Made by a program: the position numbers and the translations under genes. A stretch of DNA of 64,000 bases, taken from Mobula birostris (lineage: Eukaryota). This document shows, in pieces, positions 21,965-61,987 of this stretch; positions within the stretch are counted from its first letter, which is position 1, and the number at the start of each line of letters is the position of its first letter. The notes beneath the pieces are model-generated. The model saw only the letters and a list, made by a program, of their open reading frames with translations. It searched no databases and was not told the origin of the DNA. Where the stretch lies: the NCBI RefSeq assembly GCF_030028105.1, contig NC_092377.1, positions 99,516,865 to 99,580,864 on the forward strand. Direction: 5' to 3'.

Positions 21965-24900
21965 TATAACTTCAGAGACCTGGCTTACTTGAAAGATCAG
22001 ATTAGGACAAGAAGGTGAAATACACTGTAGCAGTGACAAACAGATTTGAAGCTCTGACAGTGGAGAACACACCAAGCTGGTTGAAGTTTAAAAAGGCAGT
22101 GCTGGATGTGTCAAATGAGTGATAATGAAAATGAGAAAAGAGAAGAGAAAAGGTTGACAGATTTGCTGGATGATATTTATGATAGCGGAGAAATACCTGA
22201 GGAGATGAGCAAGTCAGTAATTATTGAACTGTCATAAAAACCTAGAGCAGTTGAACATGAGTTACACCAGACAATTTGACGAGTCATGGTGTGAAAGTCC
22301 TGTTATGAATCATTATGATGAAGGCAAGAAAAATCATGGAACTGGAGATTGTGCAAGAGTAGTGTGTCTTCACTGAAAATAGTGAAAGATAAAATGCAGT
22401 CTTCCTCCTCAGAATGATTTGTGAGCACTCAATTGAGGTCCAGAAAGACCTCTACCTATCTTTCATTGATTACACCAAAGGTTTTGATAAGGTGAGACAT
22501 GAAGAGCTTATAAAAATCCTTCAGCACTTGGGCATTGATAGGAACTGTATTAAATCATCAGAAATTTGTATTAGGAACAAAGAGCAGGATTGAGAGTTGA
22601 ACATGAGACATGTGGTTTTGACCAGATAAAGAGGGGAGTCAGACAAAATAACAAATGAGAAAGTGTTGTGAAAAGCTGGAATAAGAAACATAAAGTTGTA
22701 GTGGTAGGGGATTTTAATTTTCCATATATTGATTGGGACTCCCATACTGTTAGGGGTCTAGATGGTTTAGAGTTTGTAAAATGTGTTCAGGAAAGTTTTC
22801 TAAATCAATATTTAGAGGGAACAACTAGAGGGGATGCAATATTGGATCTCCTGTTAGGAAACGAGTTAGGACAAGTGACAGAAGTCCGTGTAGGGGAGCA
22901 CTTTGGTTCCAGTGATAATAACACCATTAGTTTCAACTTGATCATGGACAAGGATAGATCTGGTCCTAGGGTTGAGGTTCTTAACTGGAAGAAGGCCAAA
23001 TTTGAAGAAATGAGAAAGGATCTAAAAAGCGTGGATTGGGACAGGTTGTTCTCTGGCAAGGATGTGATCGGTAGGTGGGAAGCCTTCAAAGGAGAAATTT
23101 TGAGAGCGCAGAATTTGTATGTTCCTGTCAGGATTAAAGGCAAAGTGAATAGCAATAAGGAACCTTGGTTCTCAAGGGATATTGCAACTCTGATAAAGAA
23201 GAAAAGGGAGTTGTATGACATGTATAGGAAGCAGGGAGTAAATAAGGTGCTTGAGGAGTATAAGAAGTGCAAGAAAATACTTAAGAAAGAAATCAGGAGT
23301 GATAAAAGAAGACATGAGGTTGCCTTGGCGGTCAAAGTGAAGGATAATCCAAAGAGCTTTTACAGGTGTATTAAGAGCAAAAGGATTGTAAGGGATAAAA
23401 TTGGTTCTCTTGAAGATCAGGTTGGTCGCCTATGTGCGGAACCAAAGGAAATGGGAGAGATCTTAAATAGGTCTTTTGCATCTGTATTTACTAAGGAAAC
23501 TGGCATGAAGTCTATGGAATTAGGGGAAACAAGTAGTGAGATCATGGAAACTGTACAGATCGAAAAGGAGGAGGTGCTTGCTGCCTTGAGGAAAATTAAA
23601 GTGAGTAAACCCCCAGGACCTGACAGGGTGTTCCCTCGGACCTGAAGGAGACTGGTGTTGAAATTGCAGGGGCCCTGGCAGAAATATTTAAAATGTCGCT
23701 GTCTACAGGTGAGATGCCGGAGGATTGGAGAGTGGCTCATGTTGTTCCGTTGTTTAAAAAAGGATCGAAAAGTAATCCAGGAAATTATAGGCCGGTAAGT
23801 TTAACGTCGGTAGTAGGTAAGTTATTGGAGGGAGTACTAAGAGACAGAATCTACAAGCATTTGGATAGACAGGGACTTATTAGGGAGAGTCAACATGGCT
23901 TTGTGCGTGGCAGGTCATGTTTGACCAATCTATTGGAGTTTTTCGAGGAGGTTACCAGGAAAATGGATGAAGGGAAGGCAGTGGATATTGTCTACATGGA
24001 CTTCAGTAAGGCCTTTGACAAGGACCCGCATGGGAGGTTAGTTAGGAAAATTCAGTCGCTAGGTATACATGGAGAGGTGGTAAATTGGATCAGACATTAG
24101 CTCAGTGGAAGAAGCCAAAGAGTGGAAGTAGAGAATTGCTTCTCTGAGTGGAGGCCTGTGACTAGTGGTGTGCCACAGGGATCAGTGCTGGGTCCATTGT
24201 TATTTGTCATCTGTATCAATGATCTGGATGATAATGTGGTAAATTGGATCAGCAAATTTGCTGATGATACAAAGATTGGAGGTGTAGTAGACAGCGAGGA
24301 AGGTTTTCAGAGCCTGCAGAGGGACTTGGACCAGCTGGAAAAATGGGCTGAAAAATGGCAGATGGAGTTTAATACAGACAAGTGTGAGGTATTGCACGTT
24401 GGAAGAACAAACCAAGGTAGAACATACAGGGTTAATGGTAAGGCACTGAGGAGTGCAGTGGAACAGAGGGATCTGGGAATACAGATACAAAATTCCCTAA
24501 AAGTGGCGTCACAGGTAGATAGGGTTGTAAAGAGAGCTTTTGGTACATTAGCCTTTATTAATCGAAGTATTGAGTATAAGAGCTGGAATGTTATGATGAG
24601 GTTGTATAAGGCATTGGTGAGGCCGAATCTGGAGTATTGTGTTCAGTTTTGGTCACCAAATTACAGGAAGGATATAAATAAGGTTGAAAGAGTGCAGAGA
24701 AGGTTTACAAGGTTGTTGCCGGGACTTGAGAAACTCAGTTACAGAGAAAGGTTGATTAGGTTAGGACTTTATTCCCTGGAGCGTAGAAGAATGAGGGGAG
24801 ATTTGATAGAGGTATATGAAATTATGATGGGTATAGATAGAGTGAATGCAAGCAGGCCTTTTCCACTTAGGCAAGGGGAGAAAAAAACCAGAGGACATGG

Positions 24901-25560
24901 GTTAAGGGTAAGGGGGGAAAAGTTTAAAGGGAACATTAAGGGGGGCTTCTTCACACAGAGAGTGGTGGGAGTATGGAATGAGCTGCCAGACAAGGTGGTA
25001 AATGCGGGTTCTTTTTTAACATTTAAGAATAAATTGGACAGATACATGGATGGGAGGTGTATGGAGGGATATGGTCCGTGTGCAGGTCAGTGGGACTAGG
25101 CAGAAAGTGGTTCGGCACAGCCAAGAAGGGTCAAAAGGCCTGTTTCTGTGCTGTAGTTTCTATGGTTCTATGGTTCTAAGAAAAGAACAGTTATCATCAA
25201 TCAGAAAGTGGCAGCTGTGATTTCTGGGGACATGTACTAATGACATGTACGAGAAAAGGTTGAGTTCAACAGTGCATGGCATTCAAGAGTTACATCAAGG
25301 GATGGTCAAGCAAAAATTTTGAAGAGCGAATTAGAACTTCTCAGATCAAAAATAGATGGAAGACCATGATTGCCCATATCAAACAACATGGCACATAATG
25401 ATGGGGGCTGGGTGCACAGAGGGTACCCCAGAGGCAGGGAAGAGGAGATATGGGTGGGTGTCCCAGGGACTTGAGGTGGGGGATGGCACCCCAAAGAGAA
25501 AAGTGAAGGGAGAAGGCAGCGTACCACAGGAGCAAGGGTGAGAGGTGTCAGAGCAACCGA
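21965..25560 (+). mobile_element. Decayed RTE-clade LINE split by CR1
   Basis: VAVTNRFEAL, QKDLYLSFIDYTKGFDKVRHEEL; continues after 25184 (LGHVL..., WKTMIAHI). Confidence 0.75.
22689..25176 (+). mobile_element. Young 5'-truncated CR1 LINE with 7-bp TSD
   Basis: APE (GDFNFP) and RT (NYRPVSLTS, GVPQGSVLGP, FADDTK); one 1-bp deletion near 23642 and one TAG at 24098; TAAGAAA at 22682-22688 and 25177-25183. Confidence 0.95.
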
Positions 25561-27159: not shown

Positions 27160-28800
27160 CACCCTTGAGGATTATAAAAAAGCCAGAAAAAAGAACTCAA
27201 GAAGGGAATTAGGAAGGCCAGAAGGAGCCATGAATAATTCTTGACAAGTGGGATTAAAGAGAATCCCAAGGCATTCTATATATACATCAGGAACAATATG
27301 ACAGCTAGGGGAGAAAGTAGGACCATTCAAGGATAAAGGGATACATTTGCTTGGCTGTGAAGGATTTGGTTGAAACCCTTAATGAGCACTTCCTATCAGT
27401 ATTTACCAAGCAGAAGGACATAGAGGATAGAGAGATCAATGCCAAGTGTATTGATATACCAGGGCACTTTATGGTAAAGCAGAAGGCACTGTGAGTCTCT
27501 TAAAGAGCATTAAGATGAGTAAGTCCCCATGGCTTGATGGAATATACCCCAGGTTATTGAGAGAGGCAAGAGGAGAGATTACTAAGGCCTTGATCAATGT
27601 CTTTGTGTCCTCTCCAGGGACAGGTGAGGTCCTGAAGGACTGGCAAGTGGGTAATATTGTTCCATTATTCAAAAAGGGAACCATGCATAATCCTAGAAAG
27701 TAGAGACCAGTGAGTCTCATCTCAGTGGTAGGGAAGATACTGGAGAGAATTCTTCAGAATAGGATTCATGTGCGTTTGGAAAATCGTGGCTTTATGGGGG
27801 GCAAGTAGTGTCGTACTAACTTGATTGAGAGTTTTGATGAGGTGATGAGGGTGTTTGATGAAGGTACAGTAGATCTGTTGTCTACATGGATTTTAGAAAG
27901 GCATTTGACAAAGTTCCTCATCCAGAAGATTGATTTGCATAGGTTTCATGGTAAATAGGCAATCTGGATTCACAACTGGCTTGTCTGTAGAAGACGGATG
28001 GTAGAGATTGAAGGGATTTACGCCAGCTGGAGATCTCTCATTACTGGTGATCCACAGGGATCTGGACTGGGATCTACTGTCTGTGATGTGTATAAATAAC
28101 CTCGATGAAAATGTAAATGGGTGGGTTTGTAAGTTTGTAGATGATGCAAAGATTGATGGTGTTGTGGATAGTGTAGAAAACTGGCAAAGAATACAGTGGG
28201 ATACAGATCAGTTGCAAATGTGGGCAGAAAAATGGCAGATGGATTTTTATCTGGTCAAATGTGAAGTGTAACACCTTGATAGGTCAAATGTAAATAGAAA
28301 GTACACTGTTGAAGGCAATACCCTCAATAGTGTTAATGAGCAGATGGATCTTGGGCTCCAAGTTCATAGCTCCATGAATGTGGCTACACAGGTCAATAAG
28401 GTGGTTAAGAAGGCAATTGGCAGGCTTACCTTTATTAGTTGAGGCACTGAGTTCAAAGGTCAGGAAGTTATATTGCAGCTTTATAAAACTCTAGTTAGAC
28501 AACATCAAGAGTATTGCATACAGTTTTGGTCACACCATTTGAAGCACCTTCAATAACTCCAAAAGACTGGGGTTTGGTGAAATACTGAAAGGCTTTTATT
28601 TGCTGTACAATACGACCTCCACAGTGAGTGTCTGCCCCCGGACTGAGGGGGAGGGGAAAGGCGGAACACCTTTATACAGGACTCTGTGGGAGGAGCCACA
28701 GGGGCAGTCAGCAGAGGAGCGTGTCCAGACAGTTAACTCAGTTACAACAAAAATGTGGTTTACCACATCATTATAGAAAGGATGTTGATACTCTGGAGAA
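27160..28800 (+). mobile_element. Old CR1 fragment
   Basis: KSPWLDGIYPRLLREAR, KFVDDAKI; many stops. Confidence 0.85.
28540..28767 (-). mobile_element. Short solo LTR
   Basis: TG...CA termini; flanks CCATT/TCATT; interrupts the CR1 codons WSHH|YRKDV. Confidence 0.75.
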
Positions 28801-29105
28801 ACACCTGCATCTCCTCTAAGGCCATGAGTATCACGAACTCATTCATGAACAATATTTGTGAGTGCATCACAGGTGAGGCTTCCTGCCTGGCCCATTACAA
28901 GAAACAGTCAACCAGCAGCTCCCCGGAGGTCCAGACTGCCATGCGGCTATCGCTGCTTGGGAAGCTGTCCAGTCTTGTCATGTCAGAAGGAACAATGTCG
29001 GTGACCGAGTACACCAACTCAAAGTGTATTTCCACAGGATCCTGACAAAACAAACTGAAAACCCAATGGCTCTATTAAATGTCACACACAGTTTCCATGG
29101 AAGAA
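28800..29105 (+). pseudogene. H2B: 5'-truncated histone H2B pseudogene
   Basis: [51 protein letters not shown]; decayed stem-loop ACCCAATGGCTCTATTAAATGTCAC and HDE-like GGAAGAATT. Confidence 0.9.
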
Positions 29106-30069
29106 TTGTCTTAATATTTTGACTATACTTTTCTATATCTGCCTCAATATTTCTCTTTCGGGAGATAATATTCATCAAGTTCATGTTGATGACAATTAGC
29201 TGTCCCCCTGCCTGGTGACATTCCTGTGATCCTGCACACTGAACTAACACGGAGCTTCCCCTTCTCCTGTCCCGTTAGTTTGTCTTCATCTTCAAGCACT
29301 TGTCCCACTGAACTCTCCATTGACAGAGGAAGACATTGATCAGGATTTTTGTATGCTTTCTGTTCTTCATGTTCTAGTGAATGCCTCTTCATTTCCCCAT
29401 TATACTGTTTCCTTGCTGCCCTGAATCTACATCAGAATAAATTAACTGTTGTATCGCTGTTTCTGTGTTTCCACCACAGACTGTGAAGTGACCCTTCCAT
29501 GATGTGATGTGTTTTCACAAAGAGGGACACATTCCCAGAGGCAGTTATGGTAGAATTAATTCACATTCTCTGTGGACAGTAACCAGGATTCAGTGACTGA
29601 TCATGCAGGGAGTCCATGTTCACAGAGAGGTTTCTGAGTGCTTCCTTTTGGTCTGTTGTTTAATTTTATTTTCTCTTTGGTGTTAAACTGAGGAGGCTGA
29701 GTCAGTGCCCAAGAGTATCAAAGCAGCAGGGCCCGGATCCGAGAGCCAGGAATGAGCACTAGGCCAGATTTAAAGTCTCAGTCTGTCAGGGTTGGGGTGA
29801 GGGAGTTATTCAGCTTGCTGCTTTGGGGGGTTTGTTCATCCCTGTGCTGAACTGAGGCTGTGGCCTGTAACTAACAGGCTCCTGGACCAGCTTTGTGACT
29901 TTAGTTCTGAGTATTATTTACTTTTTTTTACTTTTTGCACGATTTGTTCTTTTTTGCACATTGGGTGTTTGACAGTCTTTTTTCATGAGTTCTATTGGGT
30001 TTCTTTGTTTTGTGACAGTCTCTAAGGAGATGAATCTGAAGGCTCAATATAGTATACACAGTTTGAAGT

Positions 30070-30688
<619 letters not shown>

Positions 30689-30760: not shown

Positions 30761-30934
30761 GCACCGACTGCGGTGAGTCCGGGGCATTTCCGTTCAAAGT
30801 GTCTGTCGTAGACAAGGGCTTAAACTCTCAATCTAAAGTGCATTTCCTTCCCCGAAAAGAAAACAGTATTTATCTCCGCACTTTACCGGGTTTTACCAAT
30901 TGTACTGCGCATTTGACCGAAAATGAAGGTTCTC

Positions 30935-31075
30935 TCCACCCCCCCCCCCCCGCTTCCTGGTTAATGCAGAGCGATGCTTGATTGGCGGTAAAGCGCCTAA
31001 CGTAATTGGCGAGTGTAAACGCCCAATCAGAGAGCGGCCATGTTCACCGAAACATTGAAATTTGAGAAGTCCTCG
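30935..31075 (-). promoter_or_regulatory. Gene-less histone-promoter-like module downstream of H2A
   Basis: On the minus strand: CTCAAATTTC, GCTCTCTGATTGGG, two CCAAT boxes, then CCAGGAAGC followed by G13. Confidence 0.6.
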
Positions 31076-32748
31076 ACGAGTAAGTTAATTTTATAGAACA
31101 GTCTAAAAGTAAATAACTACAGATGTGTGCGAATAGGAGCCGTCACATGACCCTGATCCATTTTTACTATAAACAATGTAAATTTATTATCAAAATACGT
31201 ACACCACACACAGCCTTGAATTTCATCCTGTAGGCACCCACAAAGTAAACAATAGAATCTATGGAAAAGCTACACACAACAAAGACCGACAAACAAGAGG
31301 GGAAATCGTGCAAACAAAAATAGTAATATAAAACATTACCCGCAGAAACCCCGAAAATGAGTTCTCCGATATGAGAGATATGCATATTAGATTAGAGTCA
31401 ACTTTATTGTCATTGTGCCGAGTACAGATACAAAGCCAATGAAATGCAGTTAGCATATGACCAGAAAGGCAAAGGATAGTGTTATTTACAAAATAACTGC
31501 GAATAAAAAAGTGCTACAGCACACACATATAAAAGTACTGAGACAGTACAATACGGATGCAATACTGCTTAGCGCTGTGATGAGAGGTTCAGCAGGGTCA
31601 CAGCCTCAGGGAAGAAGCTCTTCCTGTGCCTGATGGTGCTGGAGCGGAGGAGAGTAAAAAGTCCATGGTTAGGGTGAGATGCACCCCTGATACAGTAATG
31701 CTTTTCGCCCTGCCCAGGCAGCGTTTATGGTAGATGTTCTCAATGCTGGGCAATTGGGTGCCAATATTCCGATCAGTACAAATGCTGATTCATGGAACAT
31801 GACAGGTTTTTATTAAGTTATGGACGGTTCGCAAACTGCGGTCGGGATCGGGAGTGTAATGTGAAGTTGTTTGTGAAAGGACCGTGAACCTATTCTGAAT
31901 CCCAAGAAGAATCAATAGTATTCATGACAATTACAAAGCACCTATTTAACCACCTTCACGGCAATTAAACCGCATCAGCAACAACAAAAATCTGCCTCAG
32001 AAGAATAAACTCTTTGAGTAAGGTTGTGTGTGCATGTCTGAAGATGGAACCAAGCTGATGTAGGAAAGTTTAAATGGGCGAGGAGAACCAATCACAACTC
32101 GCCCGGAGCCCGGTAACTCTGGCAGGGCGGTGGAGGCGGAAGTGGAAGAAGCTGACATTGAGAATCATTGCTTTTCTTGCAGCAGAGGAGGCTGCAGATC
32201 TCAGATCTGATCGAGTTATCTATACCCGGGGTGTGAAACTGCTCAAATGCTGATCGACACACGGGGATTCTGAGCGTACAAAACTGAGCTGACGGAAGGG
32301 ATGGGTCTGAACAGACGGTATTGTCCTGTGCCGGCTGAACAGCCTCACTCTCTGCCAGACATTCCTGGAATGGTTTTATTCTTTACCGGCGTGAGGGATT
32401 CGCCAGCAGGGACACCAATATCCCCAAATCCCTGGACGTTCTTGAGTGACTTTCTAGCCCATTTCAGAGGGCAGAGAAAGGTCGGCGACACCGTAGCGTG
32501 TCGGGAGTCACACAGAGGCCGCGGGAAGGACTGCAGATTTCCTCCCCTGGACAGAAAGGCTTTCACCACAGGCCAGTACGCTCCACACTGGACCAGCTGT
32601 TTATTCCAGACTGAGTGCTCTGGTGTGGTGCCCGCTGATTCTGGGAGCTCACACACTAAATGCTGTGTAGTGGAAATGAGTATGTTAATGAGGGCAATGT
32701 TGTTTACGTGGACCCCAGTGAGGAGTTTAACGTTTGAGGCATCGGAGT

Positions 32749-39538: not shown

Positions 39539-40329
39539 CCCATACCATTGACCTGAAATGTTAACTCTTTATTATGCGATTAATGTTAAAACAAAGGGAC
39601 GAGGTTGTCACATAATTACTGAGAATTATGGCACAGGATTGAAATCTCTCCGAACACAGAATGAACGGTATCGGGCCACGAAGAGCGTCATTGTTACATT
39701 AAGGGTCTGGAAATTAAATTTCCATTCTCTGGTGAACACAATAACCCAATCAGAGAGCGGCAAGTGTACCTCAGTTCTGAGGATCGTGTAGTTTTGAGGT
39801 TGTGGGGTGGTCAGTTTTCTCATAGTTTTGAAAACTCTGAAAGGGCTGAGGTCCTGACAAAAACTCTACCCATGTCCCTTAGTTCTCCTTTCCAGTCTCC
39901 TCTCCCCATGTACTAGATCCTCCTGTGGACAGTTTACAATGATGGAAGCAACCTTCCAGAAATGCTTGGTATGGCCATTCCAATCGATTTACCTCTTGTA
40001 TTGGTCACTGCCCCACTCAATATTCACATGGGTATCATCCCTGAGAACTGTAATCTTACTGTGGCCCTCATCATCTGAAGGTTGTTCAATTAAATGGAGC
40101 TGAAAACTGAAAAATGATTACTCCATCTGGCTTGATAATGTCACCTCTAGAATTTTATTGCATAAGAACTGTAAGGTTTTGCATAAGGTTTTATCCACAC
40201 ATGTCAAACCATCTACCGGAGCATAATAGAAAACTGAATCCGCTATTTCTCCCTCAGAATTGAAATGGGTAGCCACCGGGAGATCCCGCTTTGCCATTTT
40301 CAATGGGCGTGGGGTGCATTTGTTCTGTT

Positions 40330-40480
40330 CACATTGTCCAATTAAAAGGTTAGATGGAAACCTACCAATGAAAACTTATTCTACCCGATTCCTTATTAGC
40401 ATAGGGCGGGGCATACTGTCTATTTAATCGGCACTGCGAGTTGGTTCCGCTTATTTTCGACTCCGAAATTGACTGAAGAA
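40330..40480 (+). promoter_or_regulatory. H2B promoter with octamer variant
   Basis: Two CCAAT boxes, CCTTATTAGCAT 40391-40402 (H2B box consensus CCTTATTTGCAT), a GC box, TATTTAA at 40421. Confidence 0.8.
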
Positions 40481-40849
40481 ATGCCTGAACCGAAAGCTTC
40501 CAAGAAGGGCGCGAAGAAAGCCGTGTCCAAAGCGCAAGCCAAGGGCGGCAAGAAACGCAGGAGAACCAGGCGAGAGACTTACTCTATCTACGTCTACAAG
40601 GTAATGAAACAAGTTCATCCCGACACCGGCATCTCCTCGAAGGCCATGAGCATTATGAATTCGTTCGTGAACGATATTTTCGAGCGCATTGCGGGCGAGG
40701 CTTCCCGCCTGGCTCATTATAACAAACGCTCGACCATCACTTCTCGGGAGATCCAGACCGCCGTGCGCCTGTTGCTGCCCGGGGAGCTGGCCAAGCACGC
40801 CGTGTCAGAAGGGACAAAGGCGGTGACCAAGTACACCAGCTCCAAGTGA
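40481..40849 (+). CDS. H2B: Histone H2B, 122 aa
   Basis: [13 protein letters not shown]...[14 protein letters not shown]; ATG at 40481. Confidence 0.98.
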
Positions 40850-40922: not shown

Positions 40923-41619
40923 CTAATGTTCGACATTGGATCGCAATCACTTTGTCTTTGAAAGATTTTACTCCCAAAGGTAATTCTAATTCTGTTAATA
41001 TTGAGTAAACCTTACATCACTCCGTACAATCCTTATCGCATCCCTGCTTCAATACACTAACACCGACATTTTGCCCTCTTGCTTCCGTCAGTTTGTCGCG
41101 ATTTTCTCCCACTCAAAATTTTGCACAAAGCATTGAAGTGAAAATGTTTGCTGTGGCTGATGTGATTTAATTGCTGTGAATGCGATGCATTATCTGGAGT
41201 ACCCCTGTGATGGAAAAACCCTGAATCCTCGAGATCACAACAGGTTCACTCGGGTTCCTTTCACACTACAGTCCAACAGTCATTGCTACGATTGTAGGTA
41301 GTGACCCGTCTACAATCTGATGCGTTGTACCTTGTATCCTGTGAATCAGTTTGTACTAGTAGGTTACCAAAGGAATGAAAGTGCAGATTAAAATCAAATA
41401 ATCTCTCGTAAATGAGGATTTTGCACCTTGTTCTTATTGTAAATGAGTGGGGACGCTGTGATGGTGAATCCTGTTCTCGCATCTGCATGTTTTTGGATTA
41501 AACGATAAAAGTATAATCTTGGCGTGCTTTTCACAAACTGGGGATTTAGATCAGTTTGGGGTATCTATGTCTGCTGTTCGCTCGCTGATTTCACCGCTCC
41601 GCGTTGCCCCAGGAAGTTC

Positions 41620-41910
41620 ATGGACGAGCGCGAGATTATCTACTCATTATTGGTAAAATATCTGGTACAAGAAAATCAAAGATTTCGCAAACCACTAGGC
41701 AGAGAATGAGGAATTCCTCTCGCGATCCCCCCCCCCCCCATAGCTTCTGGAGGATTGCGAAAGGACACTTACGATTGGTGGTTCCGCGCCTTCTCTGAAC
41801 GGTAATATAAAATTACCCAATCAGCGAGCTGTCCGGTTCTCCAATGATCAGACGGCGTCAGAGAAGCGCGGAAAACTGTCTCTCCCCACCCGAAATTTGA
41901 AAAGCCCGCC
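41620..41910 (-). pseudogene. Orphan H2A promoter/5' UTR remnant
   Basis: Reverse complement aligns with 30070-30300 (CGTCTGATCATTGGAGAA, ACCAATCGTAA.TGTCCTT, CGCAATCCTCCAGAAGCTAT, TTCCTCATTCTCTGC); no intact CDS follows. Confidence 0.8.
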
Positions 41911-42153
41911 AAAGAAAAAAATAATAATAATTAATTAATCAATAGTCTAAAGCCTAGATCAGTTACAAATCTGTATGATCTCGGATTTCCTGCATAACTA
42001 GTTATTTGATCTCAGTCCACTTCTGTCCATATAGAATGTGAATTAACTGTACCATGACTGACTCTAGGAATTTGTGGTTCTTTGTGAAAACACATCAGAT
42101 AATGGAAAGATCTCTCTTCTCAAACTGAGGATGGAGTACAGAACATTATGAAC

Positions 42154-45087: not shown

Positions 45088-45917
45088 TGTTACATACCCC
45101 GTAACTGGGTTGCCAAACTAGCAGAAATGGACCACTTAGCTGGAGTCTGGATTACTGGAACTAAGAAAGTTTTATTAAAGAAATAAGTAACACAGTACTC
45201 TAAATGTAAGGATATAAATGCAACGGGTTAGCAATGATAAAACACGTACACAGAACTATGATAATAAGATCAATCAAGCTCTATCGCAGTCTAGGGGTAA
45301 AATGATCAGTCTCAAGTGACACAGAGTTCAGTTCAGTTTAGTTCAGTTCACAGTAATCGCTGTTGTGCCATGGGGGGAGAGAGAGAGAGAGGGAATGATG
45401 ATATTCAAATCGGATTCAACACCTTTGATATTCCTCGCAGTTAGCTTTCAGGCGAGCCCGTTGTAATGTCTTCTGAGGTCACCGACTGTGACCCCTCCAT
45501 TCCGGATACAATCGTTCTTCTGCGGTGAACCCGGCACCCAGGCAAGGGCGGACACACACAGCAGGTTCCCGCTGATCGTACCTTTTCACCCTGTGCGTCT
45601 ATGGTCGGTCCTGCGATGCAACCTCCAAAACTCCCACCAACTTGTGGGGGGGGCACCGCACTTCCAGGGTCTCGTTACCTCGTCGTGTCATGGTGTGTCT
45701 GTTGCCTTAGCAAACCTGTGCCTTTTATCCCCCTGCTGGGGTATCGCCTGTCCATCAAACTTCAAACAGTTCAAGTTCAAAGCAACCGGTCTCTGACAAT
45801 ACTCGGAACTGTGTCTCCTTTCGTTAATCTCTCTCGTCTCCCATTAACATTTCTGAATGTTCCCCCATTGTCTTTCTTATCGGCCTCAATCTTCTGATAA
45901 CTTGGTATTTTGTCACA
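45088..45917 (-). mobile_element. Solo LTR with 4-bp TSD
   Basis: TGTTACA...TGTCACA termini; CATC on both sides. Confidence 0.85.
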
Positions 45918-50519: not shown

Positions 50520-51159
50520 TTTCCTATTCACTCACCTTTTGTGGTTACGACACGCTGATTTCCTCTGACCCTCCCTTGTGGGTGTTTTGTGTAATATTGT
50601 TCAATAATTCATCCCGGTTTGTTACAGACTCCAACACGGCCGGACCCACCAACACTGAGAATCAGCAGTTCTGTGCCGTTGGGTTAAAGGCAGCGCGAAC
50701 ACCAGAGATAAACTTTTCCCTCGCTGTCAGGATGTCTCTGTCCCCAGACCCCTGCCGTGAACAGCAGGTTGTTTTTGGGGAAGGTTTCCAGGGTTTTGTG
50801 GTTGTTACTGTTACGGGGAATGAGCTTTAATAAATGTAGCCTTCGAGTCCCATTTCTAGTCGAGCCCATAATTGGTTCACGGGGACACGTTAGTCTGCAG
50901 ACACTGGAATTCCTGTTCTTTCAGAGAACAACTTCTTTTTCACGTTGCAAACTCGTCTTCGACCGCAGTTTGAGAGACCAGTGATGTTTATACACCAGCC
51001 GACCGCGAATATAAACTGGATCGGAGTTTGGAAACTAAATGACCAGAAACATTCAAACTGCTGAGCTAAATAATACTTAGGCTGTTACTGTAAAATAAAT
51101 CTTGAGCTAGTTAATGGATCAATGCATATTTTTGTAGACTAGGGTTCAATAAACAACCC

Positions 51160-51330
51160 TTTCGTGGGCTTTTCAAATTTCAGGTCATACTGGGAAGAGG
51201 TACCTTCGGCGCTTCTCTTGCCGCTCTCTGATTGGGTTATTGCGTTCAACATAAGAGATTGGATATTAATCGCCAGACCCTTAATTTAATATCGGCGCTC
51301 TTCATAACCCGATACCGTTCATTCTGTGTT
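51160..51330 (+). promoter_or_regulatory. Gene-less histone-promoter-like module between convergent H3 and H4
   Basis: GGGCTTTTCAAATTTC, CGCTTCTCTTGCCG, CTCTCTGATTGGGTTATT (as at 30156-30173), ATTGG, TTTAATAT, CATTCT. Confidence 0.6.
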
Positions 51331-51843: not shown

Positions 51844-51925
51844 TCACTCCAGTCGTTGTTCAGTAACAAACTGTGTGCTGGTGTCACCTTTTATACCCAG
51901 CGCCCCGACCTGTCCGAGAAACGCG

Positions 51926-51949
51926 TGGGGGGGGGGGTGAGGAGGGGGG

Positions 51950-51988
<39 letters not shown>

Positions 51989-52001
51989 GGGGGAGGGGTG
52001 G
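51926..52001. repeat. Poly-G and (GA)n tract in the H4 promoter
   Basis: Two long G runs, a GA microsatellite, then GGGGAGGGGTGG. Confidence 0.9.
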
Positions 52002-53928: not shown

Positions 53929-56855
53929 CATAGAAACATACATAGAAAATAGGTGCAGGAGTAAGCCATTCGGCCCTTCGAGCCTGCACCACCATTTATT
54001 ATGATCATGGCTGATCATCCAACTCAGAACCCCGCCCCAGCCTTCCCTCCATACCCCCTGATCCCTTTAGCCACAAGGGCCGTATCTAACTCCCTCTTAA
54101 ATATAGCCAATGAACTGGCCTCAACTGTTTCCTGTGGCAGAGAATTCCACAGATTCACCACTCTCTGTGTGAAGAAGTTTTTCCTAATCTCGGTCCTAAA
54201 AGGCTTCCCCTCTATCCTCAAACTGTGGCCCCTCGTTCTGGACTTCCCCAACATCGGGAACAATCTTCCTGCATCTAGCCTGTCCAATCCCTTTAGGATC
54301 TTATACGTTTCAATCAGATCCCCCCTCAATCTCCTAAATTCCAACGAGTACAAGCTCAGTTCATCCAGTCTTTCTTCATATGAAAGTCCTGCCATCCCAG
54401 GAATCAATCTGGTGAACCTTCTTTGTAATCCCTCTATGGCAAGGATGTCTTTCCTCAGATTAGGGGACCAAAACTGCACACAATACTCCAGGTGTGGTTT
54501 CACCAAGGCCTTGTACAACTGCAGTAGTACCTCCCTGCTCCTGTACTCAAATCCTCTCGCTATAAATGCCAGCATACCATTCGCCTTTTTCACCGCCTGC
54601 TGTACCTGCATGCCCACTTTCAATGACTGGTGTATAATGACACCCAGGTCTCGTTGCACCTCCCCTTTTCCTAATCGGCCACCATTCAGATAATAATCTG
54701 TTTTCCTATTTTTGCCACCAAAGTGGATAACTTCACATTTATCCACATTAAATTGCATCTGCCATGAATTTGCCCACTCACCCAACCTATCCAAGTCACC
54801 CTGCATCCTCTTAGCATCCTCCTCACAGCTAACACTGCCACCCAGCTTCGTGTCATCCGCAAACTTGGAGATGCTGCATTTAATTCCCTCATCCAAGTCA
54901 TTAATATATATTGTAAACAGCTGAGGTCCCAGCACTGAGCCTTGCGGTACCCCACTAGTCACCGCCTGCCATTCTGAAAAGGTCCCGTTTATTCCCACTC
55001 TTTGCTTCCTGTCTGCTAACCAACTCTCCACCCACACCAATACCTTACCCGCAATACCATGTGCTTTAAGTTTGCACACTAATCTCCTGTGTGGGACCTT
55101 GTCAAAAGCCTTCTGAAAATCCAAATATACCACATCCACTGGTTCTCCCCTATCCACTCTACTAGTTACATCCTCAAAAAATTCTATGAGATTCGTCAGA
55201 CATGATTTTCCTTTCACAAATCCATGCTGACTTTGTCCGATCATTTCACCGCTTTCCAAATGTGCTGTTATCACATCCTTGATAACTGACTCCAGCAGTT
55301 TCCCCACCACCGACGTTAGGCTAACCGGTCTATAATTCCCCGGTTTCTCTCTCCCTCCTTTTTTAAAAAGTGGAGTTACATTAGCCACCCTCCAATCCTC
55401 AGGAACTAGTCCAGAATCTAACGAGTTTTGAAAAATTATCACTAATGCATCCACTATTTCTTGGGCTACTTCCTTAAGCACCCTGAGATGCAGACCATCT
55501 GGCCCTGGGGATTTATCTGCCTTCAATCCCTTCAATTTACCTAACACCACTTCCCTACTAACATGTATTTCGCTCAGTTCCTCCATCTCACTGGACCCTC
55601 TGTCCCCTACTATTTCTGGAAGATTATTTATGTCCTCCTTAGTGAAGACAGACCCAAAGTAATTATTCAATTGGTCTGCCATGTCCTTGCTCCCCATAAT
55701 CAATTCACCTGTTTCTGTCTGCAGGGGACCTACATATGTCTTTACCAGTCTTTTCCTTTTCACATATCAATAAAAGCTTTTACAGTCTGCTTTTATGTTT
55801 CCTGCCAGTTTTCTCTCATAATCTTTTTTCCCCTTCCTAATTAAGCCCTTTGTCCTCCTCTGCTGAACTCTGAATTTCTCCCAGTCCTCAGGTGATCCAC
55901 ATTCTCTGGCTAATTTGTATGCTTCTTCTTTGGAATTGATACTATCCCTAATTTCTCTTGTCAGCCACGGGTGCACTACCTTCCTTGATTTATTCTTTTG
56001 CCAAACTGGGATGAACAATTGTTGTAGTTCATCCATGCAACCTTCAAATGCTTGCCATTGCATATCCACCATCAATCCTTTAAGTGTCATTTGCCAGTCT
56101 ATCTTAGCTAATTCACGTCTCATACCTTCAAAGTTACCCCTCTTTAAGTTCAGAACCTTTGTTTCTGAATTAACTATGTCACTCTCCATCTTAATGAAGA
56201 ATTCCACCATATTATGGTCACTCTTACCCAAGGGGCCTCTCACGACAAGATCGCTAATTAACCCTTCCTCATTGCTCAAAACCCAGTCCAGAATAGCCTG
56301 CACTCCAGTTGGTTCCTCCACATGTTGGTTCAAAAAACCATCCCGCATACATTCCAAGAAATCCTCTTCCTCAGCACCTTTACCAATTTGGTTCACCCAA
56401 TCTACATGTAGATTGAAGTCACCCATTATAACTGCTGTTCCTTTATTGCACACATTTCTAATTTCCTGTTTAATACCATCTCCGACCTCACTACTACTGT
56501 TAGGTGGCCTGTACACAACTCCCACCAGCGTCTTCTGCCCCTTAGTGTTACGCAGCTCTACCCATATCGATTCCACATCTTCCTGGCTTATGTCCTTCCT
56601 TTCTATTGCGTTAATCTCTTCTTTAACCAGCAACACCACCCCACCTCCCCTTCCTTCATGTCTATCCCTCCTGAATATTGAATATCCCTGAACGTTGAGC
56701 TCCCATCCCTGGTCACCCTGGAGCCATGTCTCTGTGATCCCAACTATATCATAATCATTAATAACAATCTGCACTTTCAATTCATCCACCTTATTACAAA
56801 TGCTCCTTGCATTGACACACAAAGCCTTCAGGCGCTCTTTTACAACTCTCTTAGT
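53929..56855 (-). mobile_element. Young CR1 with nearly complete ORF2
   Basis: APE (55767-56870) and RT (54024-55763) are in frame, separated by one TGA; TTTCTATG repeat tail at 53929-53948. Confidence 0.95.
54024..55763 (-). CDS. CR1 reverse transcriptase domain (579-aa open segment)
   Basis: NYRPVSLTS, YLDFQKAFDKV, GVPQGSVLGP, FADDTK; an upstream in-frame stop makes expression doubtful. Confidence 0.6.
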   Translation of the reverse strand: MKRKRLVKTYVGPLQTETGELIMGSKDMADQLNNYFGSVFTKEDINNLPEIVGDRGSSEMEELSEIHVSREVVLGKLKGLKADKSPGPDGLHLRVLKEVAQEIVDALVIIFQNSLDSGLVPEDWRVANVTPLFKKGGREKPGNYRPVSLTSVVGKLLESVIKDVITAHLESGEMIGQSQHGFVKGKSCLTNLIEFFEDVTSRVDRGEPVDVVYLDFQKAFDKVPHRRLVCKLKAHGIAGKVLVWVESWLADRKQRVGINGTFSEWQAVTSGVPQGSVLGPQLFTIYINDLDEGIKCSISKFADDTKLGGSVSCEEDAKRMQGDLDRLGEWANSWQMQFNVDKCEVIHFGGKNRKTDYYLNGGRLGKGEVQRDLGVIIHQSLKVGMQVQQAVKKANGMLAFIARGFEYRSREVLLQLYKALVKPHLEYCVQFWSPNLRKDILAIEGLQRRFTRLIPGMAGLSYEERLDELSLYSLEFRRLRGDLIETYKILKGLDRLDAGRLFPMLGKSRTRGHSLRIEGKPFRTEIRKNFFTQRVVNLWNSLPQETVEASSLAIFKRELDTALVAKGIRGYGGKAGAGF

Positions 56856-58108: not shown

Positions 58109-59706
58109 TGTCACAATGGCGGGGCATTGGGAGCAAGGGTGGACCCAAATGCAAGACACATCTTGTGAGGTTACTTAGATTTAGTTTATTGTTCAATACC
58201 AGGAGAACTAGGCAGGAGCAGGAGTGGCGAACTGGACAAGGACTCAGGACTACGACTAGGCTGGGACTAAGGGTCTGGGCTAGGACTCGGAATCGGCTCC
58301 CAGAACTAGAGGAGACATGAAGAGGCTAGGGTATGGACTTCGAGCCCGAGACTGGGCAAGGACCCAGTACCTGGGTCTTGCCTCGGGCTCGGACCCCAGA
58401 ACCAGGCATGGACATGACATGGGCTAGGGAGAGGAGGAACATGGGAACACAGAGCCTCAGTCTCGGGAGAGCAGGTACATGGAACCATGGACACATACAC
58501 AGAACACAGAGTCGGGACCCCTCCTTGGGTACAGGACGTAGGGCCGGGACTTGCACACAGAACAAAGAGCTGGGACCCCTCCTTGGGTACAGGACATAGG
58601 GCCGGGACTCATGATCCTCCGTGGGGCAATGGCAAGATGGCCTGACTTACCCCACGGAGGCGAGGACAAGACATGACCCCCCGCGGGGCAATGGCAAGAT
58701 GGCCTTACTTACTCCACGGAGGTGAAGACAGGACAAGACAAGACATGACTCCCCGCGGGGCAACGGTAAGATGGCCAGACTTATCCCGCGGAGGCGAGGA
58801 CAAGACAAGACAAGACCAACACGAATGAACACCAGACAGTACCTATCTAGCTCCGGTGATGGAACTAGACCGAAGTGCAGGCGGGGGCTGCAGATGAGGG
58901 CTAGAGGCAAGAGGGGCAGAGAAAGGATTACAGAGAAGGGTGTAGGACAGGAATCACAGACCTCCAGGGCCAGGACTTGACATGGGACTTGAACGCCGCC
59001 AGGGCCAGGACGTGGACGTGGTACTTGAACACCGCCAGGGCCAGGACGTGGACGTGGTACTTGGACGCCGCCGGAGCCAGGACGTGGACGTGGTACTTGG
59101 ATGCCGCCGGAGTGAGGACGTGGAAGTGGTAGTTGGATACCACCGGAGCCAGGATGTGGACATGGTACTTGGACGCCGCCGGAGCCAGGACGTGGACGTG
59201 GTACTTGGACGCCGCCGGAGCCAGGACGTGGACGTGGTACTTGGATGCCGCCGGAGCCAGGACGTGGACGTGGACATGGTACTTGGATGCTACCGGAGCC
59301 AAGACGTGGTGCTTGGAACCTCCAGGTAGCGGTGAGCCCTAGACTCAGCCCGGGAACAGTAGACAGCGGCTCTTGATTCTCTCCGGCGGGTTAACTGGCT
59401 GACCCACCTCGATGAGGAAACTTTGTAGGCTCGCTCGGGTAAGGAAAGGCGAATTACCGACACTCACTATGGGCGGAGACAAGGCTTGCTCCAGCCAGGT
59501 AACATTGGCACGCCATGACTTTGCAGACTTTGCGGATGCTCCCGCACCGAACAGCTGAAAGCTGGAGACTATAAACTACCAGTTCAGCCGAGTGTTAATT
59601 GCCTCCAATCACCAAAGTCGAGGGACACGGGAAAACAGGGAATCAACGGTCTGGATCGTAACATAAACAAGCTAAATTTAAAGGGACCCCGATCCGGACC
59701 ATGACA
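58109..59706 (-). mobile_element. Long LTR-like element with internal repeats
   Basis: TGTCAC...ATGACA termini; homologous to 43444-44393. Confidence 0.75.
58968..59320. repeat. 36-bp minisatellite, about 9-10 units
   Basis: Unit GCCAGGACGTGGACGTGGTACTTGGACGCCGCCGGA. Confidence 0.95.
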
Positions 59707-61987
59707 GTATCAGAGGGATAGGAAGGTAAGCAGAGGGGGTGGTGTGGTTCTGCTAGAAAAGAATGGCATCAAATCATTAGAAATATGTGACATAGGATTT
59801 GAATTAAGAAAATAAGGGTAAAAGAACCCTGATGGCAGGGTCCATACTGCTGCTGGGATGTGGACTGCAGATTACTATGGCAAATAAAATAGGCATGTCA
59901 AAAGGGCAATGTTATGATAGTCATGTCAGATTTGAACATGCAGATGGGTTGGGAAAATCAGGTTGGTAATGAATCTCAAGAGAGTGAATTTGTTGAATGC
60001 CTATGAGATGGCTTTTTAGAGCAGTTTATCATTGAGCCTACTAGGGGATCAGCTAAACTGATTTGGGTGTTATGTAATAAGCCAGAGGCAGTTAGGGAAT
60101 TTAAGGTAAATGAACCATTAGGAGACAGTGATCACAGTATGATTGCATTCAGTTTGAAATTTGAAAGGGAAAAAGTAAAGTCTGACGTAGCAGTATTTCA
60201 GTGGAGTAAAGGAAATTATAGTGGTACGGGAGAGGAAATAGGAAGGAGATGCTGGCAGGGGTGACAGAAGAGCAGCAATGCCTTAAGTTTCTGGAAAAAA
60301 TGAGGAAATGGCAGGATAGATGTATCCCAAAACAAAGAAATGCTGACATGGTAGGATAGTACAACTATGGCTGACAAGGGAAGTTGAAGCTAATGTAAAT
60401 GCAAAGGAGAGAGCATACAACAAAGCAAAAATTAGCAGGAAGATAGAGGATTGGGACGCTTTTAAAAACCTTCAGAAAGCAACTAAAAGAATCATTGGGG
60501 GGTAAAGATAAAATATCAAAGCAAGTCAGCAAACAATATCAAGGTGGATAAAAAAAAAGCTTTTCAGGTATATAAAAAAATAAGATAGATGAGAGTGGAT
60601 ACTATTACAAGGGAGAAGGTGCTCAAAAAGCTGGAAGACTTAAAGGTACACAAGTTACCCAGATCAGATGGATTGTTCTCTAGGGTTCTGAAAGAGGTAA
60701 CAGTAGAGATTATGCAGGCATTAGTAATGATCTTTCAAGAATCATTCGACTCTGGCATGGCTCCAGGGGACTGGAAAATTGCAAATTTCACTCCACTCTT
60801 TAAGAAATGAAGGAGGCAACAGAAAGGAAATTATAAAGCAATTAGCCTTAGCTCAGTGGTCGGGAAGACATTGGAGATGATGTTATGCAGTACTTGGTGA
60901 CACAGGACAAGATAGGACAAAGTCAGCATGGTTCCCTAAAGGGAAAACCATGCCTAATGCACCTGTAGGAATTCTTTGAGGAGATTACAAGTAGGATAGA
61001 GAAAGGAGATGCAGTGGATATTATATATTTGGATTTTCAGAAGGCCTTTGACGAGGTACCACACATAAGAATGCTTACCAAGTTAAGAGCCCATAATATT
61101 ACAGGGAAGTTACTAACATTGGTAGGAGGCAATGAGTAGGAATAAAAGGATTCTTTTCCGGTTGGCTGCCAGTGACCAGTGATGTTCCGCAGGGGTCGGT
61201 GTTTGGAACACTTTTTATGCTGTATATCAATGATTTAGGTAGCTTTGTTGCCAAGTTTGCAGATGACACAAAGATTGGTGGAGGGGCAGGTAGTGTTGAG
61301 GAAACAGGAAGGCTTCAGAAGGACTTAGACAGATTAGGAGAATGGGCAAGAAAGTGCCAAATGAAATTCAATGTTGGAAAATGCATGGTCAGGCACATTG
61401 GTAGTAGAAATAAATGTGCAGACTATCATCTAAACAGGAAGAAAATCCAACAATCTGAGGTGCAAAGGGACTTGGGAGTTCTTGTGCGGAACACCCTAAA
61501 GGTTAAGTTACAGGTCGAGGCAGTGGCGAGGAAGGCAAATGTAATGTTAGCATTCATTTCAAGAGGTCTAGAATACAAGAGCAGTGATGTGATGCTGAGG
61601 CTTTATAAGGCACCACTGAGCCCTCACCTTGAGTATTGTGAGCAGTTTGGGCTCCTCATCTGGGAAAAGATGTGCTGGCATTGGAGAGGTTCACAAGGAT
61701 GATTCCAGGAATGGAAGAGTTATCATATGAAGAATGTTTGATGGCTCTGGGCCTGTACTCACTGAAATTCAGAAGGATGAAGAGGGATCTCATTGGAACT
61801 TTGAATGTTGAAAGACCTAGACAAAGTAGATGTGGAAATGATGTTTCCCATGACAGGGGAGTCTAGGACAAGAGGACACAGCCTCAGGATAGATGGGCAT
61901 CCATTTAAAACACTGATACAGAGTAGGAACACACATCAAAGTTGCTGGTGAACGCAGCAGGCCAGGCAGCATCTGTAGGAAGAGGTG

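Follow-up and report, generated by a model that had tools for sequence, protein, structure and literature searches.

Between about 28.7 and 52.1 kb, the window (the whole stretch of 64,000 nucleotides analysed here) contains a small histone cluster, with an H2B pseudogene, H2A, H4, H2B and H3 in plus and a second H4 in minus orientation (Table 1). The five live genes are of the replication-dependent type, with an intronless ORF, a 3' stem-loop and a purine-rich downstream element. The stem-loop motif was found in all five, and two of them (H2A and H2B) reached the Rfam score for RF00032. Among named relatives, the closest H2A proteins were those of rays (Pristis, 97.7% identity; Mobula, 96.9%; Hypanus and Hemitrygon, about 96%), and this H2A type, with KSKPKSR and a C-terminal NPKAK, has counterparts across rays and in a sawfish. 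Searches of the window found no further H2A by tblastn, no tRNA and no Rfam family beyond the two histone stem-loops. The H2B pseudogene (62.7% amino-acid identity over 75 codons; 73.75% nucleotide identity over 320 columns) has a CpG observed/expected ratio (o/e) of 0.38 and was used as a local control for decay.

Table 1. Genes, promoter copies and paralogous flanks of the histone cluster, in order of position in the window.
Feature	Position	Strand	Description
H2B pseudogene (3' part, decayed stem-loop)	28750..29090	+	Directly upstream of H2A
Flank F upstream of P	29461..29678	+	Paralogous to 42143-41917; z 34.5; 160/216 columns identical; 0 CpG
Real H2A promoter P	30073..30298	+	TTCAAATTTC, TTTCGCGC, four CCAAT boxes, TATAAAA at 30242, cap-box motif TCATTCT at 30272
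H2A gene and 3' stem-loop	30299..30734 (ORF 30299-30688)	+	129 aa; ORF, RF00032
Copy A	30926..31110	-	CTCAAATTTC, three CCAAT boxes, 13-G run for TATA, cap box TCATTTT at 30926, no ORF
Flank S1 upstream of A	31770..32070	-	67% to S3 over 270 columns, z 19.4; to S2, z 7.6
H4 gene (a) and stem-loop	39152..39511	+	ORF, stem-loop motif
Copy B	39664..39764	-	One CCAAT box, cap box at 39664; paralogue of D
H2B gene and stem-loop	40481..40895 (ORF 40481-40849)	+	Short, 122 aa; ORF, RF00032
Flank S3 upstream of E	41060..41365	+	Paralogous to S1
Copy E	41518..41655	+	New, decayed; CCAAT cores and TTCAAA broken; cap box with one mismatch
Copy C	41686..41913	-	TTTGGCGG, 4 nt, TTCAAA; three CCAAT boxes; 13-G run for TATA; cap box TCATTCT at 41709; no ORF
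Copy of flank F upstream of C	41917..42143	-	1 CpG in 227 nt
H3 gene and stem-loop	50036..50491	+	ORF, stem-loop motif; coding sequence partly unread in the window
Flank S2 upstream of D	50710..51040	+	z 7.6 to S1; to S3, not significant
Copy D	51135..51325	+	TTTCGTGG, 4 nt, TTCAAA; two CCAAT boxes; no TATA; cap box TCATTCT at 51319; no ORF
H4 gene (b) and stem-loop	51475..51834	-	ORF, stem-loop motif; 98% to H4 (a)

Several other features of the window were recorded. The H2B promoter (40383-40425, plus strand) carries the octamer variant ATTAGCAT within a CCTT..GCATA context, and it has no head-to-head H2A partner, unlike the order suggested by Hemitrygon gene models. In the promoter of the second H4 (51910-51990), an extended (GA/CT)n tract and runs of G/C stand near the TATA box. 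CpG-rich, promoter-like DNA at 32050-32500 (plus strand; CpG o/e 0.71) holds a CCAAT box at 32088, GGGCGG and GCGGAAGTG; no gene was recognised downstream of it, and it shares no homology with the copies of the H2A promoter. Outside the cluster, CpG-rich DNA at 45300-45750 and at 58950-59500 (the second with short repetitive ORFs) probably consists of repeats. Long ORFs at 54024-55697 (minus), 22944-25099 (plus) and 61217-61702 (plus) are presumably fragments resembling retrotransposon reverse transcriptase.

In the live H2A promoter (P), the ATG lies 27 nt past the cap-box motif, from which the start sites of P and of all copies were placed. Unless tied to a cited paper, the motif names used here, including cap box for TCATTYT, are those that we take these elements to bear. 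About 390 nt (29680-30070), part of which matches a dispersed repeat, abut the TTCAAA block of P and separate P from flank F. At this TTCAAA edge, the live promoter is the more altered one, and copy C retains an E2F-like site there; the site, 4 nt before TTCAAA in C, was lost from P through an insertion.

The first-pass annotation had described blocks of the H2A promoter that recur without a gene 3' of H2A, H4, H2B and the second H4. Our alignments bore this out: copies A-D are alignable with P, and all four face the nearest stem-loop. Counted narrowly, A spans 30926-31065, B 39664-39764, C 41709-41913 and D 51160-51319. The 13-mer GCTCTCTGATTGG, with at most one mismatch, occurs seven times in the window against 0.14 expected; five occurrences are in P and A-D, one is in the H3 promoter and one is inside a long ORF outside the cluster. 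TCAAATTTC also occurs seven times (1.4 expected), four of them in P, A, C and D, and the five-way alignment sets both blocks in P and copies A-D. A decayed H2B octamer was considered by eye as a candidate identity for TCAAATTTC. Homology to the H2A promoter spans the copies from the TCAAATTTC block to the cap box. C and P share 75.5% identity over 212 columns (E = 1.5e-34; identical columns, 166/213), and the other pairwise tests against shuffles gave z-scores from 4.4 to 9.4 (A-C, 9.2; A-P, 4.4; D-C, 9.4; D-P, 7.0).

A fifth copy, E, was detected between H2B and C. By profile search alone it reaches E = 0.56. A chain of four blocks scored 40.9, ranking fifth of about 124,000 positions; the highest-scoring background site reached 27.5, and 300 shuffles gave at most 20.5. 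This score is somewhat favourable, because the blocks were picked after E had been noticed. The existence of promoter copies beside the histone genes largely holds, and they are more varied than first noted.

Motif loss among the copies is graded, from C, the fullest, through D, A and B to E. Against the four CCAAT boxes before the cap site in P, there are three in A and in C, two in D and one in B, and those of E are broken. The TATA box, which in P lies about 30 nt before the cap box, is missing from all five copies. The cap-box motif TCATTYT persists in A-D (4/4), at the normal spacing from the CCAAT boxes, and E differs from it at one position. The TCAAATTTC block is present in A, C and D and absent from B and E (3/5). 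In B, the upstream half of the promoter has been replaced by unrelated CpG-poor DNA. Compared with P, C lacks one CCAAT box and the TATA box, differs by one base in its E2F-like site and has an extra upstream TTTGGCGG, which is E2F-like; D has TTTCGTGG in its place. CGCTTCT, listed earlier as recurring, occurs among the copies in C and D only (A has CTCAAATTTC, and B lacks the block), and the strict E2F form TTTSSCGC at the H2A position is intact in P only.

The hexamer assigned to the CHR, the homology region of cell cycle genes, reads TTCAAA in P, C and D and TTTGAG in A. According to the accessible part of PMC4176359, TTCAAA functions as an inverse CHR and the variant TTTGAG is functional too, which makes the name given in the first-pass annotation plausible by sequence. 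The CHRs described there sit on or very near the start site, whereas the putative ray site lies 139-198 nt upstream of the cap box; in position, then, the label is atypical. The likeness to the CDE/CHR (DREAM/MuvB) elements of that source extends to a G/C-rich site 4 nt upstream in C. Such a CDE/E2F site 4 nt upstream of the CHR-like hexamer, which members of this family may or may not have, was found in C only (1/5 copies) and is absent in P.

The runs of G that replace the TATA box in A (30939-30951) and C (41727-41739) are the longest G/C runs of the window, at 13 nt each, among seven runs of at least 9 nt. A comparison of the two gave no support for a common origin.

All five live genes have a gene-less copy no more than about 1 kb from the 3' end. 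The cap boxes of A, B, C and D lie 192, 153, 814 and 156 nt from the nearest stem-loop. It had been proposed that every copy is antisense to its adjacent gene. This describes A-D in so far as they face the nearest stem-loop, but it fails as a rule because E, on the plus strand, points away from H2B and meets C head-on; D, moreover, lies in sense orientation behind H3. Random placement relative to histone genes, named at the outset as grounds for rejecting the idea, was not seen: in three of four events the copy lies 3' of a histone gene and faces it (p about 0.006). Relics of tail-to-tail genes, however, would show the same placement by construction.

The four copies A-D represent three events, because B and D derive from one duplication of H4 together with its 3' flank (80% identity over 243 columns). 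A weak local inverted self-match (39768-39891; E = 0.0045) lies just past the breakpoint of copy B. Long paralogous flanks accompany the other copies (Table 1). Since 200-300 nt of such flank came along, the copies are segmental duplicates and not a compact cassette. At phylogenetically informative sites, 7-16 supported grouping P with C against 2-5 otherwise, and A and C do not group. The identity between C and P in the promoter (166/213) does not differ from that in flank F (160/216; p = 0.21).

An unrelated origin, with the copies as a small NF-Y element, mobile or assembled by convergence, that inserts near histone genes and of which H2A has co-opted one copy, is very improbable. The core 13-mer recurs in the H3 promoter and is, we presume, near the NF-Y consensus, which we counted in favour of such an element. 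However, a search of the window with the promoter profile returned no match beyond the cluster at E below 1, and the long flanks differ among the copies. The same layout also precedes H2A in Hypanus and Mobula, so that this explanation is already largely refuted. In wider scans, a 19-mer gave four metagenome loci, which we consider chance matches because none has a histone gene nearby or any further similarity, and a viral scan for the two-block pattern gave no match.

The promoters of other rays were read through over-extended gene models. The Hypanus H2A model P0024 has an in-frame extension of 87 residues that can be aligned with P (E = 8e-5) and with C (E = 0.007). This extension reads FWRAVSNFS, fitting TTTGGCGGGCT..TCAAATTTC of C, and its SNF, which fits TCAAATTTC, lies 225 nt before the Met, equal to the distance in P (chance about 0.006). 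Where the TATA box is expected, Hypanus P0024 and Mobula P0031 both read RYKKGE, as a TATA box with purines behind it would; such purines could be a source of the G runs found where A and C lack a TATA box. Among 127 longer H2A-family proteins, none matches a gene-less copy at E below 0.01, and P is matched by P0024 and P0131 only. Fused Hemitrygon models, which show order and strand but not distance, place an antisense H2B (P0126), or an antisense H3 and then H2B (P0131), between two H2A copies; H2A thus faces H2B or H3 tails in a relative. In the Mobula model P0017, an exon resembling the H2B pseudogene is joined to the same H2A type, as in the window, and this layout may be shared.

These results point to an origin of the copies in genes. 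We consider, with a probability of about 0.62, that they are relics of H2A genes lost from duplicated units, often arranged tail to tail, in a cluster evolving by birth and death. Each copy would once have driven an H2A gene whose coding part was later deleted. The first-pass annotation had offered relics of lost tail-to-tail partners as one option, and this proved the best supported of its alternatives, given promoters that are complete to the cap box, long paralogous flanks and the match to the H2A promoter of another ray. The same cluster also holds an H2B pseudogene, B has lost its upstream half and E has lost its CCAAT cores. For histone clusters, the available text of PMC13525598 describes pseudogenes and evolution by birth and death.

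The head-on pair E and C may indicate how the coding sequences were lost. The two cap boxes are 65 nt apart, and the expected start codons are separated by 11 nt, a gap that would be the expected leftover of excising two inverted coding sequences. Here, two near-identical inverted coding sequences were probably excised as an inverted repeat, with the diverged promoters being spared. In yeast, intra-strand annealing of inverted repeats can cause their deletion, according to the accessible part of PMC10164571, and we infer by analogy that E and C could have arisen in this way. Copy A may likewise be what is left of an inverted H2A/H2A pair that lost one arm. However, excision of an inverted repeat does not account for B and D, which face H4.

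Other observations weaken the relic explanation. None of 13 alignments of the DNA after A, C or D to histone coding sequences exceeded z = 1.4, while the local H2B pseudogene keeps a coding relic; several clean deletions must therefore be assumed. The TATA box has been lost in all copies, while a CCAAT box and the cap box persist in A-D. In addition, C shows no excess of private changes (6-7 against 8-9 in P, of 127-140 columns) and has 15 CpGs against 8 in P, and B and D are identical at all 20 motif columns. Separately, a short H2A-like stretch after C that had been spotted by eye failed against shuffles (z = 0.9).

We also considered a role for the copies as active promoters that converge on the adjacent histone gene and, by antisense transcription, damp or terminate it. 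The orientation of A-D and the normal distance between cap box and CCAAT boxes would suit this role, which we nevertheless judge improbable. All five copies lack the TATA box and E faces the other way. No ORF or processing signal common to the copies follows the cap boxes; a polyadenylation hexamer occurs 95 nt after the cap box in B and D only, at 541 nt in C, and is absent in A. According to the available text of PMC3372504, human genome-wide run-on data show, in general, no significant antisense transcription beyond the 3' ends of genes, and Pol II falls sharply after core histone genes. Separately, a weak protein search of 17 candidates with an open frame of A gave no match at E up to 1. 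Four presumed RNA runs of organisms A and B contained 0.23-0.37 of the sequence words, no more than the 0.39 that the mRNA by itself could supply, which speaks neither for nor against transcription.

The original description noted that CpGs are retained. The o/e values of A (0.99), C (0.97) and D (1.22) are indeed near or above 1, compared with 0.37 for the window. However, high CpG is not specific to intact motifs: E reaches 1.28 though no CCAAT box precedes its cap site, the DNA between gene and copy has values of 0.72-1.0, and the block of B itself holds 1 CpG. Just beyond B and C, the o/e drops from about 1 to 0.09-0.11, and the CpG island extends past A and D without ending there. Of the 9 CpGs that C has and P lacks, 6 correspond to TG or CA in P.

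These data bear on a further possibility, namely that the copies have the same origin in H2A genes and were then repurposed as selected, TATA-less NF-Y/CHR elements serving as 3' enhancers or CpG-island borders; loss of the TATA box would then curb strong antisense initiation. The fall in CpG past B and C is consistent with a border, but E holds its CpGs despite broken motifs and the island does not stop at A or D. C is richer in CpG than P and is not evolving faster, and the E2F-like site missing from P still stands before TTCAAA in C; a recent loss of the gene would explain C as well, without any function. B and D, which have been gene-less since before their split, share 7 CpGs and do not differ at any of the 20 columns of CCAAT box and cap box, while 163/194 (84%) match elsewhere (p = 0.037); for the second-longest identical run, p = 0.02. 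The p-value of 0.037 is only modest, because several tests were run. The corresponding comparison between C and P was not significant for motif columns (41/48 against 125/165 other columns; p = 0.11) or for the longest run (p = 0.19). TATA was lost in both A and C though these do not group, as might be expected under selection, whereas motif content is uneven and B lacks the CHR-like and E2F-like half. Turnover between promoters and enhancers is documented in mammals, mostly in the reverse direction, in the accessible part of PMC6172195. Overall, C and B/D show modest signs of retention, and we regard repurposing as a serious though rather unlikely explanation.

A bolder form of this idea is that rays domesticated dead H2A promoters, with the coding sequence excised, the TATA box lost, and the NF-Y and CHR/E2F sites kept as a conserved 3' enhancer or CpG-island border; we hold this to be unlikely. 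The repeated cassette of a histone gene plus a convergent element, as first proposed, is weakened by the count of three events instead of four, the orientation of E, the uneven motifs and the lack of a common predicted transcript or ORF after them, though the non-random placement and the modest retention in C and B/D speak for it. If the copies are relics of lost H2A genes, as we prefer, the surviving CCAAT boxes may still be bound by NF-Y, with a longer unmethylated island as a side effect, and the neighbouring gene need not require them; some copies may also help to keep adjacent chromatin open. NF-Y action depends on position relative to the start site, as stated in the available text of PMC11269187.

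Related systems have been reported. The histone pseudogenes in the jumbled vertebrate clusters treated in the accessible text of PMC13525598 are likewise dead copies among live replication-dependent genes; those are non-functional genes, whereas in the ray cluster, in five cases, nothing of the coding sequence accompanies the surviving promoter. The P/E elements in the available part of PMC6172195 suggest that a promoter without a transcript could likewise serve as an enhancer, but they are defined by chromatin and RNA data and mostly changed from enhancer to promoter. The sea urchin enhancer of alpha-histone H2A and the insulator sns5 also show a regulatory element flanking an H2A unit within a histone cluster (PMC2794192, in the part available). 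There, sns5 is a functionally shown enhancer-blocker 3' of H2A in a tandem repeat unit, and that part does not describe it as a promoter duplicate. Human intergenic regions resembling histone promoters, a gene-less motif layout predicted earlier, are genome-wide model predictions in the accessible text of PMC2880410, whereas the ray copies lie next to histone genes and can be aligned as duplicates of a single promoter. In the accessible literature, outside which most subscription journals lie, we found no description of gene-less promoter duplicates in ray histone clusters, either as relics or as selected elements, and the available main text of a 2026 review of histone gene organisation (PMC13525598) mentions no shark, skate or cartilaginous fish.

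If the copies are relics, they would represent an unusual form of histone gene death, in which the coding part is cleanly gone and the promoter is left behind. Their decay series would then offer a natural experiment on the time for which a promoter keeps its CpG island once its gene is gone. If they are selected instead, they would be vertebrate histone 3' regulatory elements made from old promoters, and a paralogue-based case of promoter-to-enhancer conversion.
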